From Candidatus Heimdallarchaeum endolithica (GTDB lineage Archaea > Asgardarchaeota > Heimdallarchaeia > Heimdallarchaeales > Heimdallarchaeaceae), in the NCBI GenBank assembly GCA_021513715.1, contig CP084167.1, positions 1,536,001-1,600,000 of the forward strand: a DNA stretch of 64,000 nt, in the 5' to 3' direction. The translations under genes and the position numbers were made by a program. Under the pieces are notes generated by a model that was not told where the DNA came from, made no database searches, and worked only from the letters and a program-made list of their open reading frames with translations. Every line of letters starts with the position of its first letter. Position 1 is the stretch's first letter. This document shows positions 11,739 through 35,448 of this stretch, piece after piece.

Positions 11739-11908
11739 AATAGTACTATATTTTTATCAAAAATAAAGCTAGCTGTTACAGATTGTTAAATAAATTTTGA
11801 AAATGGAACAAAAATATTAAATCTTAAGTCGATACTTTATAACAAAAGACATTAAATATCGAATGATTTATTTAGGTAGGGAAAATTCAATGTTTGAAGA
11901 GTGAAAAA

Positions 11909-27953: not shown

Positions 27954-29657
27954 GTGAAAAAGATGGTCACTATAAAAGCAAGTTACACAAAAATGTTGAA
28001 AACTCTTGGAAAGAATCTTTCAATAGAAGAATTGGATAGACTACTTTCTTTTGCCAAATCTGAAATAGACGAATATGTAGAAGAAGAAGATATGCTAGTA
28101 ATAGATGTAAAAACAAGTAACCGTCCAGATTTATGGATTCCTGAGGGGATGATAAGAGAGATAAAAGGCATATGGGGAGAAGAAAAAGGTATTCCGAAGT
28201 TAGAGCTAAAAGAAAGCGATTATAAGGTTATTGTAGATCCAAAACTATCTAAATCCAGACCCTTTATTGCTTGTGCCATCGCAAAAAATGTCACACTAAC
28301 AGATTATAATATCAAACAACTAATGCAGTTATCAGAAAAAATAGATCATTCCTATGGAAGAAGAAGAAAAAGATCTTCTATTGGAATGTACAACTTATCC
28401 ATGATAAAAAGCCCTATTCAATATAAAGTAATTGACAAAAATCACAAATTCATTCCTCTTGGTTATACAGAACCACAAGATCTAGAAACAATTTTAGAAA
28501 CTCATGAAAAAGGAAAGGAATTTGGCTACATTGTTAAAAGTTATGGCCATTATCCTATTCTTTTGTCAGCAGATGGATTAACACTTTCTATGCCTCCAAT
28601 TATCAACAGTAATGATGTAGGTAGAGTTACAGAAGAGACAACTGATATGTTAATTGAAGTAACAGGAACTCACCTTTGTACAGTACATGTTGTGTTAAAC
28701 ATTCTATGCCAAACATTAGCAGATTTAGGAGCAGAATTATATAATGTAACAATAGAATACCCAAAAGAGATATTAGATAAAACTATAGTTACCCCTACAA
28801 TAGAATATGAAGAAATCGAAATTAATCTCAAAGAGATAAACAAATATCTAGGAACTAAACTAAAACCGAAAAAGGTGGAAGAGGTATTAAATAAAAGAAG
28901 ATTTGATGTCAAGAAAATAGATAAAGACATGATTACAGTACTTATTCCTCCTTATAGGACAGACATTTTACACTGGGTTGACATTGCTGAAGAAATTGCT
29001 ATTGGTTTAGATTATAACAAAATGGGTCCTACAAAATGGAAAGTTCTTACAACTGGAGGACTTTTACCAGAAACAGAAAGTGAAAACATAGTAAGAGATA
29101 TTCTTGTTGGAACTGGTGCAATAGAAGTAATAACTAACACTTTAACAGATCCTGATATACTAACAATAAAAGTAAACATTGAAGAGGACAATTTTGTTAA
29201 GATTTCAAATCCTGTAAGTAAAAACTATAGTGTTATTAGAAACAGTATTTTTCCCAATTTAATAAATATACTTTCTAAAAACACCCATGAAACATATCCA
29301 CAGGTAATCTTTGAGGTAGGAGAAATTGTTAAGTTAGACAAAGGAAGAACTTGGACACAGACCAACGCAGCCTATATGTTAGCAGACACAGAAACAAGCT
29401 TTGAGGATGCTCATAAGGTTCTAGATCAAATGATGAGATTACTTGAAACTAATTATAATCTAATCGAGACTGAACATCCATCATTTATTAGAGGAAGAAG
29501 CGCAGAAATAGAAATTGAAGGCAAAATATGTGGAATCATAGGAGAGGTTAACCCCGAGGTTTTAGAAAAAAATCAAATATGGATGCCTACAGTAGGTTTC
29601 GAAATAGAACTACCATTAATTCCCTCTTTAGAATGTAAAAAGAAGTATACTTATTGA
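27954..29657 (+). CDS. pheT: Phenylalanine--tRNA ligase beta subunit
   Basis: NRPDL, SMPPIINS, PPYRTDILH..DIAEEIAI; directly follows pheS. Confidence 0.95.
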   Translation: MKKMVTIKASYTKMLKTLGKNLSIEELDRLLSFAKSEIDEYVEEEDMLVIDVKTSNRPDLWIPEGMIREIKGIWGEEKGIPKLELKESDYKVIVDPKLSKSRPFIACAIAKNVTLTDYNIKQLMQLSEKIDHSYGRRRKRSSIGMYNLSMIKSPIQYKVIDKNHKFIPLGYTEPQDLETILETHEKGKEFGYIVKSYGHYPILLSADGLTLSMPPIINSNDVGRVTEETTDMLIEVTGTHLCTVHVVLNILCQTLADLGAELYNVTIEYPKEILDKTIVTPTIEYEEIEINLKEINKYLGTKLKPKKVEEVLNKRRFDVKKIDKDMITVLIPPYRTDILHWVDIAEEIAIGLDYNKMGPTKWKVLTTGGLLPETESENIVRDILVGTGAIEVITNTLTDPDILTIKVNIEEDNFVKISNPVSKNYSVIRNSIFPNLINILSKNTHETYPQVIFEVGEIVKLDKGRTWTQTNAAYMLADTETSFEDAHKVLDQMMRLLETNYNLIETEHPSFIRGRSAEIEIEGKICGIIGEVNPEVLEKNQIWMPTVGFEIELPLIPSLECKKKYTY

Positions 29658-30589
29658 TTAAGTTCTTTTTCTTTCTTTTTATTTTCGTTTTTTATAATTA
29701 CTAGAATACGTTCCCATATAGCATCTAATAATGAGTAGATAACTCTTTGTTGATCTTGTGTTTCAATAATAGGTATTTTATGTCGATTTGCTTCTTCAAC
29801 AAGATATCTCTGAATAGTTCGTATTTCCTCAAAAGCATTAATATAACGCTCTGCATTTCTTTCTACCACTTTTAACCCTCTTCTCTTAAATCGTTCAAGA
29901 TGTTCATGTTCATCTTTTAAGTGTAGAAGAAAAAGCATTACATGTTGTTGACTTATCGTTTCTGTTTTAAACAAGTTAGGAGATAAATGGACACCTTCGA
30001 TAATTGTGTTTTCTCTAGAGTACATAGCTGATTCAATAATAGCTTCAACACCTACAATCACTAATCTACTTTGTTCTTCAAATCCTACAATACTTCTATC
30101 TAAAATCGGATTTATTTCTGACTTTAAATACTTGTAAGCTTCATATGAACTTCCATATAACTCAGGAACTAATTTTTTTGAAATACTCTGCCTTAATATT
30201 TCCCTTATCATATCAGTTCCAATTATATTTGTTATTTCTAGTCTACGTGAGAGTAGTGAAGCGATAGTGCTTTTTCCTATTCCAGGAACTCCAGCTAACA
30301 AAATAATGATTGGCTTGTATACACCCTTTTGTTCAAAAGCGATATATCTCTGTGCATACAAGGGATTAAATTTTTCAAGACTATCTAGGACTATCTGTGA
30401 AAAAGATTCCTGAGAGAGTGTTTTACTTGTCTTACCTACTTGTAATTCTATTTGAGTTGCTAATTCATAAGCATTAATTTCATCTAAACCTATAGCATAA
30501 AAAGTACGAGAAAGAATCCCTTTAGAAAAAATTGTTTTTTTTCCTGATTTTGTCCTAAATTTGATAAAGTTAGATGAAGGTTTACTCAT
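29651..30589 (-). CDS. 2-phosphoglycerate kinase-family protein (ATP-cone-like N-terminus)
   Basis: FSKGILSRT; GVPGIGKS; GTDMIRE; IIEGVHL. Confidence 0.8.
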   Translation of the reverse strand: MSKPSSNFIKFRTKSGKKTIFSKGILSRTFYAIGLDEINAYELATQIELQVGKTSKTLSQESFSQIVLDSLEKFNPLYAQRYIAFEQKGVYKPIIILLAGVPGIGKSTIASLLSRRLEITNIIGTDMIREILRQSISKKLVPELYGSSYEAYKYLKSEINPILDRSIVGFEEQSRLVIVGVEAIIESAMYSRENTIIEGVHLSPNLFKTETISQQHVMLFLLHLKDEHEHLERFKRRGLKVVERNAERYINAFEEIRTIQRYLVEEANRHKIPIIETQDQQRVIYSLLDAIWERILVIIKNENKKKEKELNQ

Positions 30590-30733
30590 TGAGAAGTTTA
30601 GGTTTTAAAGATATAAAAATTTGGTGTGATTCGAGCCATTATTTTATAATTTCAATTTTGAATCAAAAAAACAAACTGCTTGGATTAGGCTATCAAAACT
30701 TTATTATATAAAAACTATCAATTTTTTCTCAAT

Positions 30734-31624
30734 ATGAACTTTGAATCCCCAATATACGTGAAGAGAGAACAAGCAAGTTACTTATTTAGTAGAGGGATTC
30801 TGGCTACAAGATTAGAAGTTATAGGGCTTAAGTTTCAGCAAGCATATGAGTTATCAAACAAAATCTATCTAAAAATCAAGAAATTACACAAAAATACCAT
30901 ATCAAAGAGTAAACTGGACGAATTTGTCTATAATTCAATTAAACAAGAATACTCTAAAGAGTTAGCAGAAGAATACTTAATGATTGAAAAATTAAGAGAT
31001 ACAAGTATCCCTCTATGGATTGTTATTGCAGGAGCTATTGGAGTAGGAAAAAGTACTTTGTCAAGGAAAATTGCTTCTGATTTTGGAATTAGACATGTAA
31101 TTGGAACAGACATAGTAAGGGACATTCTAAGAAAAACTCTCTCTAAAGATATTGCTCCACAGTTACACACTCCATCATATCTAGCATATAAAACATTGAG
31201 ACCAATTTATAATACACGTTATGATGAAGTGATTATTGGTTACGAAAATCACTCGAAGTATGTTAATATAGGAATTGAAGCTTTACTAAATAGAGCTGCA
31301 ATGGAAAATATTTCTATAATAATTGAAGGAGAGCACTTATTACCTTCTTTTTTTGACAAAGAAACAATAAAAATCTCTAATCTAATTTACATAACTATAT
31401 CTCTAGAAGATGAAAAGGTGCATTTGGAAAATTTAAGTTCACAGTATTCTAGAGAAAAAGATGAGCTAATTAAGCATTTCAAGAATATTCGAAAAATTCA
31501 TGATTTCCTTGTTCATGAAACAAAGATCAGAAAACTACCAGTCATTGAATCTAATGATAAAGAGGCAGTTCTTGCAAATGTTAGGAAATACATAATTGAA
31601 AAAACTAAAAAGGTAATTTTCTGA
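30734..31624 (+). CDS. 2-phosphoglycerate kinase-family protein, second paralog
   Basis: FSRGILA; GAIGVGKS; GTDIVRD; IIEGEHL. Confidence 0.8.
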   Translation: MNFESPIYVKREQASYLFSRGILATRLEVIGLKFQQAYELSNKIYLKIKKLHKNTISKSKLDEFVYNSIKQEYSKELAEEYLMIEKLRDTSIPLWIVIAGAIGVGKSTLSRKIASDFGIRHVIGTDIVRDILRKTLSKDIAPQLHTPSYLAYKTLRPIYNTRYDEVIIGYENHSKYVNIGIEALLNRAAMENISIIIEGEHLLPSFFDKETIKISNLIYITISLEDEKVHLENLSSQYSREKDELIKHFKNIRKIHDFLVHETKIRKLPVIESNDKEAVLANVRKYIIEKTKKVIF

Positions 31625-32524: not shown

Positions 32525-32783
32525 TCTTTCTATGCCAAATTACTAAAAAAGATTATAAACAAACTGATTTAAGTCAAAATAACGAGATATTTATTCATTG
32601 TAAAACCTCACTCAAGAAATGGTGAAGTAAAAAAAATGGGCATTAGTAGAAGAAGAAATTAAAAGAAGAGATCTAGATTACCAAGTGCAGCTTACGAAAA
32701 AAAGAAGGCATGCTTCTATTTTTTACGTAATTTACAGCTGTTGAGGAAGAAGGAGGAAAAAGAGAAGAGAGGAAGGAGAGGGG

Positions 32784-32791
32784 TTTTTATA
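32784..32791 (+). promoter_or_regulatory. Probable TATA box for tnpB
   Basis: TTTTTATA embedded in a polypurine tract ~60 nt upstream of the ATG. Confidence 0.4.
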
Positions 32792-32853
32792 GGGAAAAAA
32801 AGTAAAATAAAAAGAGAAGAAGAAAAAATAAAACAGAAAGAGGAAGGAAAAAA

Positions 32854-34314
32854 ATGGTGGAGGACGTCGTCAAAACCTTGAAAGTGAGAATAAAGAAGGA
32901 GGTATTGACGACGAGGAAGAAGGAAAGGCTAAGGCGAATAACGGGGAGAGACACGAGGATAATAGAGAAGTATGTGAGAATAATACATCATAACAGAAGA
33001 AAAATATGTACTAAAACTAAAAAAGGGAAAATAAGAGTGCATAGAGGAAAATTAGATGAACTGACACTAACTACTTCAAAAGTTAAAGAAGAAGAGAGAA
33101 GAACAACTGTTCCTCACGATCTGAAGAAAATGTTCCCTTATTGTTCTCACAATGAATTCCAAGAGTGTAGAGATATAGCCGTACAATTATATGAACAAGG
33201 GTATAGACCCAGTCCTACTCGTCCTCCAATAAAGAGAGCAAGAAGACAATTAATTAACAAAAAGAGGTTCATTCTCGTTCATCTGCCAAAAGAGAAGAAT
33301 AACACTCTCACTCGTTGGTGGGTGGGGATAAGAGACTCGTTAGATACGTGGAAAAGAAACACTCCTTATCATCAGAAACTATGGTTACCTTTAGAGATGA
33401 GCACTTTCCACCAGAAGGAATTGAAGAAAGGGAGAATAAAAAGTCTAGAACTAAGATATAGACATTCTACACGTGAGTGGTGGGTATATTTCCAACTGAG
33501 AGTTCTTCCTCCTTCTTTTTATCTCACAAGTCAAGGAGATAATTCTTCTTCTCTTCCCCCAGCTGTGCTGGGAATAGATCTAGGTATAAACATTCTTGCT
33601 ACAGGAGTGTTACTGACCCCTAAAAAGAAGTTAACAAACAAAGAGATAAAGTTTTGGTATACCAAACAGTGGAATAGAGTCAATCATAGATATAAACTTA
33701 AACTTTCCCGTCTTCAGAGGAAAGGGGATTTAAATGACCAGTCGGGTAAAAAACACCAACTTTACCGTTTTCTCGGTCTTCTCCGAAGAAGATATAGAAA
33801 CGTTAAACAAGCATATATTCACCAATTTATAAACGATGTTGTGCAGACGATAGAGACCTATGCACGAAGGTATGACCTATTCGTCGTTGTAGGTTACCCT
33901 AAACACATTCGAGAGGAGAAAGAAAAAGGAAAAGGTAAAAGTAGTCGTAAGTTTCGTAGAAAACTTCACCAGTGGAATTTTTTTCTTATTCTTGCTCTTC
34001 TCCGTCGGGCATTGATATTAAGCGGTTTTGAACCTCACCGAATATTAACGATAGAGGAAAAAGGGACATCTTCTCACTGTGCTCGTTGTGGGAGGAAAGT
34101 TATCCGTCCAGTAAGAGGTTTAGTGCATTGCCCCTCTTGCGATTACACTTTCCACTCTGACCTCACAGGAGCAATGAATATCGCTCGTAAGTTCCTTGGT
34201 TCTCTTTTTCGTCCTCGAGGAACTACTATTACTGATTACCTCACTGGTTATAGATACAGTTCTACCCATTTCACCGTTTGTCGAGGGCTCAGCCATTGGT
34301 TGCAGCCCCAGTAG
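32854..34314 (+). CDS. tnpB: TnpB-family RNA-guided endonuclease with rearranged RuvC-II
   Basis: RuvC-I LGIDLG; VVVGYP in place of canonical E; EEKGTSSHCARC...CPSC Zn finger; RuvC-III HSDLTGAMNIA. Confidence 0.9.
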   Translation: MVEDVVKTLKVRIKKEVLTTRKKERLRRITGRDTRIIEKYVRIIHHNRRKICTKTKKGKIRVHRGKLDELTLTTSKVKEEERRTTVPHDLKKMFPYCSHNEFQECRDIAVQLYEQGYRPSPTRPPIKRARRQLINKKRFILVHLPKEKNNTLTRWWVGIRDSLDTWKRNTPYHQKLWLPLEMSTFHQKELKKGRIKSLELRYRHSTREWWVYFQLRVLPPSFYLTSQGDNSSSLPPAVLGIDLGINILATGVLLTPKKKLTNKEIKFWYTKQWNRVNHRYKLKLSRLQRKGDLNDQSGKKHQLYRFLGLLRRRYRNVKQAYIHQFINDVVQTIETYARRYDLFVVVGYPKHIREEKEKGKGKSSRKFRRKLHQWNFFLILALLRRALILSGFEPHRILTIEEKGTSSHCARCGRKVIRPVRGLVHCPSCDYTFHSDLTGAMNIARKFLGSLFRPRGTTITDYLTGYRYSSTHFTVCRGLSHWLQPQ

Positions 34315-34558
34315 ACAAAAAGGAAAGCACTAATTCTCTCCTCTTGTGTTAGAGTTAGTTCTTTCTTTTTTGTCTCTCGTGGAGTGAAGAAAAGAGTTTT
34401 TAGTTCTTTTCTTCTTTATGATTCCCACGATTCGTGTATGCTGTCTGTCTCAACCCCTTCATAGCATTGTATGGCTTGGTTGAGTTCAAGAGATTAAACT
34501 TTTACTTATTTTTCTCTTGCAAGACTGAGTGCGAAAAACTTTACGTAAAAAAGTAAAT
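34315..34558 (+). ncRNA. Putative omegaRNA (reRNA) scaffold of the TnpB element
   Basis: Non-coding right end with three stem-loops: 34329-34359; 34377-34430 (includes perfect GAAGAAAAGA/TCTTTTCTTC); 34449-34484 (CTCAACC/GGTTGAG). Confidence 0.6.
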
Positions 34559-35448
34559 CATGCAACAGAAATAACAAAAGACAATATTAAGGATTTTGAT
34601 GTTTTTGTTTCTTGTGGTGAAGATGGAACAGTTAATGGAATTATAAATGGTTTAGCTGAAACAGATAAAACTCTTGGGATACTACCCATAGGTAACGGAA
34701 ATGATTACGCGACCTTACTTAGCGTTAAAGGATCATATATTCAAGCTCTTAATATTCTTGAAGAAAATAAAAAAACAGAATTAAACCTTGGGTTTGCTAT
34801 CGCTGACACAAAACACTATTTTGCAAACATAGCAGAAACAGGAATCACTTCAGTAATCGCTAAAGCTTCATATACTGAATTAAAATGGATAAAAGGATTA
34901 CCAAAGTATTATATTCTTGGATTAAAAAAAATTTCCAGCTATAAACCTATTCAAGCTCACATCAGAGTTGATAATTATGAAAGAAAAACAAAACTAATTG
35001 TTTGTGCTATTGGCCTTGGTTATCGTTTTGGAGGAGGATTTAACGTTTTACCTGGAAATAAACCCTATTTTGGAGACTTTCAAGTTTGTATTGCTGGTGA
35101 TGTACCAAAATGGAAATGGTACTGGATGATCAACAAAATAAAAAATGGTACACATGGGGATATTAAAGGAGTGAATTTTGTAAGAGGAAAAAAAATCGAA
35201 ATAGAAACTGAAAAACAATTACCTATTGAAGGAGAAGGAGAAGTATTTAGCGAAAATTCAACTAAAGCAACATTTGAGTTATCACAATCAAAGTTAAAAA
35301 TTATTGTTGGAAAAGAATTCTTAAAAAACAAGATTGAATTTGAAACAAGAAACAAAAAGTAATATAACAGAAATTTTGATTTCTTAATAAACTTTATTTT
35401 TTTAAAAATGGTTAATATAATCAATAATATCTTTCTGAGGAAAATCTA

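Follow-up and report, generated by a model that had tools for sequence, protein, structure and literature searches.

The window, a stretch of 64,000 nucleotides of Candidatus Heimdallarchaeum endolithica DNA, contains a tnpB gene (32854..34314) with a 486-aa product of the DLG plus alternative-Glu type (Ealt, RIIr, TnpB2). The gene, the element that carries it and the host gene around them are all read on the + strand. The RuvC-I catalytic Asp, D242 (33577..33579), is found in GIDLG (motif from residue 240) and is followed by LG, making the motif DLG and not DPG; the RuvC-III catalytic Asp, D436 (34159..34161), is found in HSDLTGAMNIA (from residue 434). The canonical RuvC-II Glu is replaced by G347 (33892..33894; VVVGYP, from residue 344) at the end of strand 341-348, and a profile comparison aligned G347 with the canonical Glu of Cas12f. 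The alternative catalytic Glu, E402 (34057..34059; TIEEKGTSSHC, from residue 399), comes after strand 397-401 and precedes a C4 zinc finger (C409/C412/C426/C429; 34078..34140) as E-x6-C409. This is the spacing of Ealt, defined as the Glu six residues ahead of the first zinc-finger Cys (Yoon 2023, PMC10711439). With Gly at RuvC-II, Ealt 55 residues further on and the Asp of both RuvC-I and RuvC-III present, the protein has the sequence features of a rearranged TnpB, a class with Gly or Pro at RuvC-II and the alternative Glu ~45-55 residues further on.

We compared the protein with 46 relatives (33-88% identity) and found D242, G347, E402, T405, S406, D436 and the four zinc-finger Cys to be invariant. 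This agrees with a sequence-only reading of the window, which had noted both RuvC Asp in the 486-aa ORF and the loss of the canonical RuvC-II Glu. The same reading took a Glu pair before the zinc finger as the substitute. Position 401 varies among copies (D, Q, G or N are found there), so that of the pair only the invariant E402 is the substitute Glu. Its description as an Asgard-type TnpB is borne out by the best named relatives, which come from Ca. Heimdallarchaeum aukensis (88% identity). The protein matches NCBIfam guided_TnpB (E=2.6e-23, under that model's cut-off) and Pfam Cas12f1-like_TNB (E=6.8e-9). A single-sequence search of the PDB gave no useful match and the family profile was needed; no relatives of the TnpB were found in the viral contigs searched.

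The AlphaFold model (pLDDT 83.9; about 87-90 around E402) matches Cas12f/TnpB folds. In it, D242 and G347 sit at one strand end each, with E402 directly past the last RuvC strand, the layout described for rearranged TnpBs (PMC10691335). D242, E402 and D436 would form the catalytic triad. In experiments, Ealt is required in the Fanzor2 protein ApmFz2, and an archaeal Ealt TnpB from Thermoplasma volcanium (TvTnpB) cuts DNA (PMC10530073). The triad is intact in 14/14 long copies in the genome, and 10 of the 14 have whole reading frames. Overall, the protein is probably a working DPhiG/Ealt-type (RIIr, TnpB2) endonuclease that cuts DNA under RNA guidance. The sequence-only reading had called it active; the invariant triad and a folded 3' scaffold make nuclease activity likely.

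Ends, host gene and scaffold of the element

The tnpB gene is the sole cargo of an element of 1852 bp (32710..34561, AT to AT including both AT) that has no transposase gene inside. Twelve long copies with 79-92% amino-acid identity are present in the genome, along with two at 52% and numerous fragments; frames are whole in 8/12 and in both 52% copies, with the catalytic motifs in all, and conservation among the 12 stops at the limits given. The surroundings of tnpB thus go beyond what had been read from the window before: the gene sits in a multicopy element with inverted ends. At the left (32709..32730), the host C is followed by the AT core (32710-32711) and an inverted-repeat arm ending in TTACGTAA; at the right (34541..34561), an arm starting with TTACGTAA finishes in the second AT core (34560-34561). 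The two ends are imperfect inverted repeats that match better than 2000/2000 shuffles, and the repeats within them are ~10 bp apart. A TATA-like box, TTTTTATA (32784..32791), lies ~60 nt upstream of the start codon. The same box precedes tnpB in other copies and in other AT-core elements, and it is the probable promoter of tnpB and its RNA.

The element interrupts a YegS/DAGK gene. The 5' piece (32582..32709) now starts with ACG and has a 2-nt deletion relative to the orthologue; the 3' piece (34562..35362) has Pfam DAGK_cat and YegS_C domains and is 85% identical to the whole orthologue in genome G006. Removal of the element with one AT restores the frame, which then matches the uninterrupted G006 gene, where the empty site reads CAC in place of the CAT of Ca. 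H. endolithica. With the start codon and two bases of the YegS/DAGK gene gone, and with no copy of the element closer than 92% identity, this insertion is not recent.

To the right of tnpB, the predicted omegaRNA scaffold (34312..34561), a multi-hairpin region, extends up to the right end. This 250-nt region folds better than expected (z=-5.68; 0/200 shuffles as good). Double changes occur at 9/40 consensus pairs among 22 copies, which are related, so that this count is suggestive only. An Rfam search of the region found no family. The structured RNA lies between the gene and the conservation boundary at the right end, and the 20 nt of host DNA beyond it (34562..34581) differ in every copy. 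By analogy with known TnpB systems, this right flank may act as the guide, and is the predicted guide of this copy.

We next looked at these ends in 39 insertions of five element types. AT is present at both junctions in 39/39, with a single AT in the empty site. The base to the left of AT is C in 39/39 and the base to the right is G in 31/39 (background 15% each); the target preference is C-AT-G. A 4-bp CATG duplication was ruled out: which base follows the right AT does not depend on the left end, hence the repeat is the 2-bp AT. The target appears stricter on the left of this 2-bp core, which fits a TAM, and the TAM is predicted to be ~CAT.

The same end type also flanks a canonical-Glu TnpB (three copies), an RIIr-5-like TnpB that lacks the zinc finger, and two MITE families of ~380 and ~355 bp. 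Thus, three mutually unrelated TnpBs use AT-core ends in one genome. Several AT-core copies are >99% identical at different sites, which indicates recent mobility of these elements. Distant Heimdall relatives have C-AT left and AT right junctions as well, together with MITEs of their own. Only in Heimdallarchaeaceae does the canonical-Glu TnpB have AT-core ends; kin from other Asgard groups are bounded by hairpins of the IS605 type, an indication of capture by AT-core ends.

The 380-bp MITE (L152, G000 1123643-1124019) and 15 further copies retain both ends. Part of it also looks like the 3' scaffold found in the more distant members of the family, with GAGTTCCCGG...GAGATGAACCC and GGGGAGAGTCC. 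Because the ends and the scaffold-like region are retained, such MITEs may supply extra guides. Another AT-core MITE (G000 925509-925883) sits within the 5' portion of the single Y1 tnpA in the genome, a gene that precedes an Ealt TnpB with hairpin ends.

Asgard relatives and the relation to Fanzors

A maximum-likelihood tree was built from the RuvC/zinc-finger region of 83 sequences (218 columns, no Fanzors), omitting the IS607 proteins of 645 aa and any protein in which a RuvC-I motif could not be detected. The Heimdallarchaeaceae proteins in it form one clade (SH-aLRT 99.4) that is sister to the aCas1-linked Asgard TnpBs (SH-aLRT 95.7), already classified as Cas1H-Asgard-1/-2 (Altae-Tran et al. 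2023, PMC10691335). The next group out holds two TnpBs encoded immediately after MerR-HTH/resolvase TnpA genes (loci L203 and L235); the branch joining this IS607-linked group has mixed support (SH-aLRT 35-97). By this placement, the nuclease comes from an already known Asgard clade, and it has exchanged its transposon partner.

In 26/80 related loci, tnpB and a very long ORF (1100-1750 aa in full-length examples) are arranged head to head. All 26 belong to a distant group at 32-36% identity, mostly from Thorarchaeota. The top 12 structural matches of a model of the partner's N-terminal domain are all Cas1 (Z 9.2-13.4, next row 6.0). Profile comparison with three Cas1 sequences was weak (probability 0.6%) and Foldseek matches had E>=0.06; the wide structural search alone was clear. 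A profile of this aCas1 found nothing in the element, in the genome or in 30 Heimdallarchaeaceae genomes, and was positive in 3 other genomes of the order.

The TnpB described here and those of Cas1H-Asgard share the DLG/G/Ealt/D site and are 33-36% identical over most of the protein. Their loci have an adjoining aCas1 and, in Thorarchaeota, a GTTCACTCA motif ~100 nt downstream of tnpB; in contrast, the Heimdall element has neither, its TnpB is shorter, and it has short AT-core inverted ends. GTTCACTCA is absent downstream of tnpB in the Heimdall copies, which have GGAGTGAA within the 3' scaffold in its place. In Thorarchaeota relatives (L039-L094), tnpB is also preceded, at 50-100 nt, by a conserved hairpin, GAGTTCA...GAGTGAACTC. 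It is complementary to the downstream GTTCACTCA, like a tracr-type anti-repeat (e.g. L088:9870-9960 and 11790-11800). The aCas1 gene of L088 is adjoined by a RadA/Rad51-like gene and by two others of unknown kind (L088:3317-5517), which may all travel as cargo of the aCas1-TnpB element. In a Heimdall subgroup at 36-39% identity (L022-L038), the conserved 5' region is longer, at 260 nt upstream of tnpB, and includes a strong hairpin ahead of the start codon.

Rearranged RuvC-II sites are known from two major clades and eight large branches of TnpB, several of them archaeal (PMC10691335), in line with the caveat of the sequence-only reading that other prokaryotes have such TnpBs too. Within the Ca. 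H. endolithica genome, three different TnpB types have the rearranged site, hence the rearrangement alone says little. TvTnpB and other rearranged TnpBs (PMC10530073) share with the protein the Gly at RuvC-II, the Glu six before the zinc finger, a hydrophobic residue after the RuvC-I Asp and a 3' scaffold near the right end. TvTnpB differs in being part of an IS605 element with Y1 TnpA and TAM NTGAC (PMC10530073); here, the protein is longer, the ends are inverted with an AT core, and there is no TnpA. Cas12f proteins (AsCas12f, CnCas12f1, OsCas12f) are the best matches of the TnpB in both sequence-profile and structure searches. Unlike it, they have the canonical Glu and a CRISPR array.

Given the rearranged site, one could ask whether this Asgard TnpB comes from the line that gave rise to Fanzors, a reading that we consider very improbable. 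Fanzor2 (ApmFz2), Fanzor1 and cyanobacterial pro-Fanzors (PMC10711439, PMC11832414) share with it the alternative Glu, the TnpB fold and carriage by elements with inverted ends. The element has no transposase, like Fanzor elements, its host lineage is near eukaryotes, and archaeal inheritance is allowed in general (PMC10530073). The sequence-only reading had treated the rearranged site as a Fanzor hallmark; Ealt is indeed common to Fanzors, but the Fanzor/pro-Fanzor fingerprint is DPG plus Ealt, and TnpBs with DPhiG plus Ealt form a clade apart from Fanzors and pro-Fanzors (Yoon 2023, PMC10711439). The TnpB of Ca. H. endolithica has Ealt and lacks DPG. As that reading had cautioned, its motif is DLG, and this holds throughout the clade, never DPG: the DLG-type motif, Gly and Ealt are present in the TnpB and in ~60 nearest 50%-identity clusters. 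Its setting also differs, being an archaeal chromosome with no IS607 TnpA inside the element, whereas Fanzors have eukaryotic or giant-virus hosts and the pro-Fanzors published so far are mostly cyanobacterial IS607 TnpBs (PMC10711439).

Searches of the PDB point the same way. The family profile had 57 matches, with Cas12f the best (74 bits, E 7e-20) and ISDra2 TnpB at 20 bits. No Fanzor was among the 57 at E<=10, yet the genome's ordinary Y1-linked IS605 TnpB, also rearranged, matched ApmFz2 at E=1.5e-9 as a control. In structure searches, ApmFz2 ranked only 17th by Foldseek and 13th by VIA (Z 15.3 versus 18.9 for AsCas12f). The VIA superposition on ApmFz2 (PDB 9b0l; rmsd 6.1, 363 aligned) starts at ApmFz2 residue 109, and the N-terminal extension of ApmFz2 is absent from the TnpB. 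No Fanzor1 title appeared in the top 50 structure matches, although Fanzor1 may share the fold. The placement away from Fanzors is thus indirect, by motif, profile and fold rankings, the tree having no Fanzor sequences. A special relationship of the TnpB to eukaryotic Fanzors is not supported, nor is the special relevance to Fanzor origins once suggested for it; those origins are not directly informed by the TnpB of Ca. H. endolithica.

Overall, an Ealt TnpB of a Cas1H-Asgard-related clade on an IS607-like, transposase-free AT-core element is a new combination of known kinds. Within Asgard archaea, one TnpB lineage passes among elements of the IS607 type, the Cas1 type and the AT-core inverted-end type. 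This parallels, in prokaryotes, the Fanzors' change of transposon hosts, and the lineage is not their ancestor. No biochemical data on this TnpB clade were found in the literature searched; the TnpB adds a probably active Ealt nuclease with a predicted TAM of ~CAT and with defined scaffold and guide limits.

Movement of the element

The genome, one contig that is 92.6% complete, was searched for the moving enzyme. No IS607-type TnpA (MerR-HTH plus resolvase) was found in the element or the genome, no IS630-type DDE_3 transposase gene in the genome, and no transposase between or beside any of the AT-core ends found. No transposase recurs as neighbour of Heimdall-type copies in 80 loci and 20 further regions. 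Several candidates were rejected: canonical Cas1 genes belong to CRISPR loci, aCas1 is absent as described above, and the genome's only Y1 TnpA belongs to another, hairpin-ended element. IS607 elements of Heimdallarchaeaceae have other ends and are absent from the Ca. H. endolithica genome. These elements (L136-L145) encode 640-680-aa TnpB-like proteins with altered RuvC motifs (DIN in RuvC-I, His at the RuvC-III Asp position), and their ends read ACCGT... and ...AACGTG(C/T)GT. The genome has one tyrosine recombinase. Its only resolvase-family genes are two host genes for serine recombinases of 277 and 249 aa (L085:1213-2046, G000 316.7-317.6 kb; L086:1201-1950, G000 405.3-406.1 kb), paralogues that are 47% identical and consist of a resolvase domain and a short C-terminal recombinase/HTH-like part.

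IS200/IS605 elements have subterminal hairpins, no inverted terminal repeats and Y1 TnpA, in contrast to the inverted AT-core ends found here. Likenesses are seen with IS607 (ISXfa1, IS1535): both junctions have the same dinucleotide, the target is little specified beyond it, the ends contain short repeats spaced ~10 bp apart, and outgroup TnpBs reside in IS607 elements. The IS607 core dinucleotide is GG; here the core is AT, there is no TnpA, the ends are clearly symmetric, and one end type is common to three unrelated TnpBs.

We favour, with moderate confidence, a non-autonomous element that would be moved by a serine recombinase acting in trans with IS607-like chemistry, its sole-cargo TnpB recutting vacated sites. 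IS607 inserts by recombination at matching dinucleotides (PMC10711439). Dinucleotide junctions are thus the IS607 mode, and at L203 the IS607 element shows inverted ends that contain short repeats, with an AT at each putative terminus (a single locus; the end definitions for L203 and L235 come from one locus each); for these two reasons a serine recombinase in trans is favoured. The recombinase would excise the element, closing it into a circle at AT, and this circle would insert by crossover at an AT dinucleotide. A transcript through tnpB and the right end would give an omegaRNA with the right flank as guide. After excision the site would read CAT and then the right flank, and TnpB, via D242-E402-D436, would cut such vacated sites (TAM ~ 5'-CAT, then guide match). 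Cutting of element-free sites would lead to repair from an occupied copy, which would put the element back; such restoration is demonstrated for other TnpBs (PMC10690162). Against this reading, no IS607 TnpA is present in the 92.6% complete genome despite >99% identical copies, the family's IS607 elements end differently, and the copy at 32710-34561 is old, with a decayed host gene.

In a more specific form of the same explanation, which we regard as doubtful, the movers are the two host serine recombinases, either vertically inherited genes exploited by the elements or domesticated transposases. Serine recombinases act on 2-bp cores flanked by inverted half-sites, which suits the ends found here, and no other resolvase-family genes were found in the genome. 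The two genes are present in 28/30 Heimdallarchaeaceae genomes, in 0/52 other genomes of the class and in none of ~225 other Asgard genomes searched. The TnpB family (16/30 Heimdallarchaeaceae genomes) is equally limited within the class; however, a shared range amounts to one evolutionary event and proves little. The restriction of AT-core ends to Heimdallarchaeaceae in the case of the second, canonical-Glu TnpB speaks for the host enzymes, but their genes are syntenic among housekeeping genes and have no element ends. Taken further, and equally tentatively, a family-wide AT-core class might have captured at least three unrelated TnpBs, one each from the aCas1/IS607-linked Asgard clade, IS605-type elements and an RIIr-5-like source, and be moved by short, vertically inherited serine recombinases found only in the family. 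Should the two host recombinases prove to move the elements, a domesticated host enzyme would be running a transposon class, and the recombinases would offer a compact integrase with a 2-bp core.

Terminal inverted repeats with a short direct repeat could also point to a MITE-like passenger of a DDE transposase with a 2-bp AT or 4-bp CATG duplication, as with Fanzor-carrying TIR transposons. Every TnpB associated with a DDE transposase has inverted ends (PMC10691335), and the genome has several active multicopy IS families. Those inspected have other ends, however, and none of the DDE families searched lies within AT-core ends; with the lack of DDE_3 and of any transposase at these ends, the exclusion of the 4-bp duplication, and imperfect ends whose repeats are ~10 bp apart, we judge this reading unlikely. 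It is more improbable still that TnpB binds without cutting, as TldR-like proteins do, or that an Asgard Cas1 from elsewhere moves the element. The nuclease role is a prediction from sequence, and the sister clade adjoins Cas1-fold proteins; on the other side, the three acidic residues are invariant, unlike in dead TnpBs, and the aCas1 profile was negative in the genome and in the family.

Two further observations were made during these searches. The cas1 gene of a CRISPR-Cas locus is split by a frameshift (G000 3197303-3198291). In the window, 29651-31624 holds two divergent paralogous P-loop kinase genes with an ATP-cone domain, 2-phosphoglycerate kinase-like, followed by an ARMT1-like phosphatase gene.
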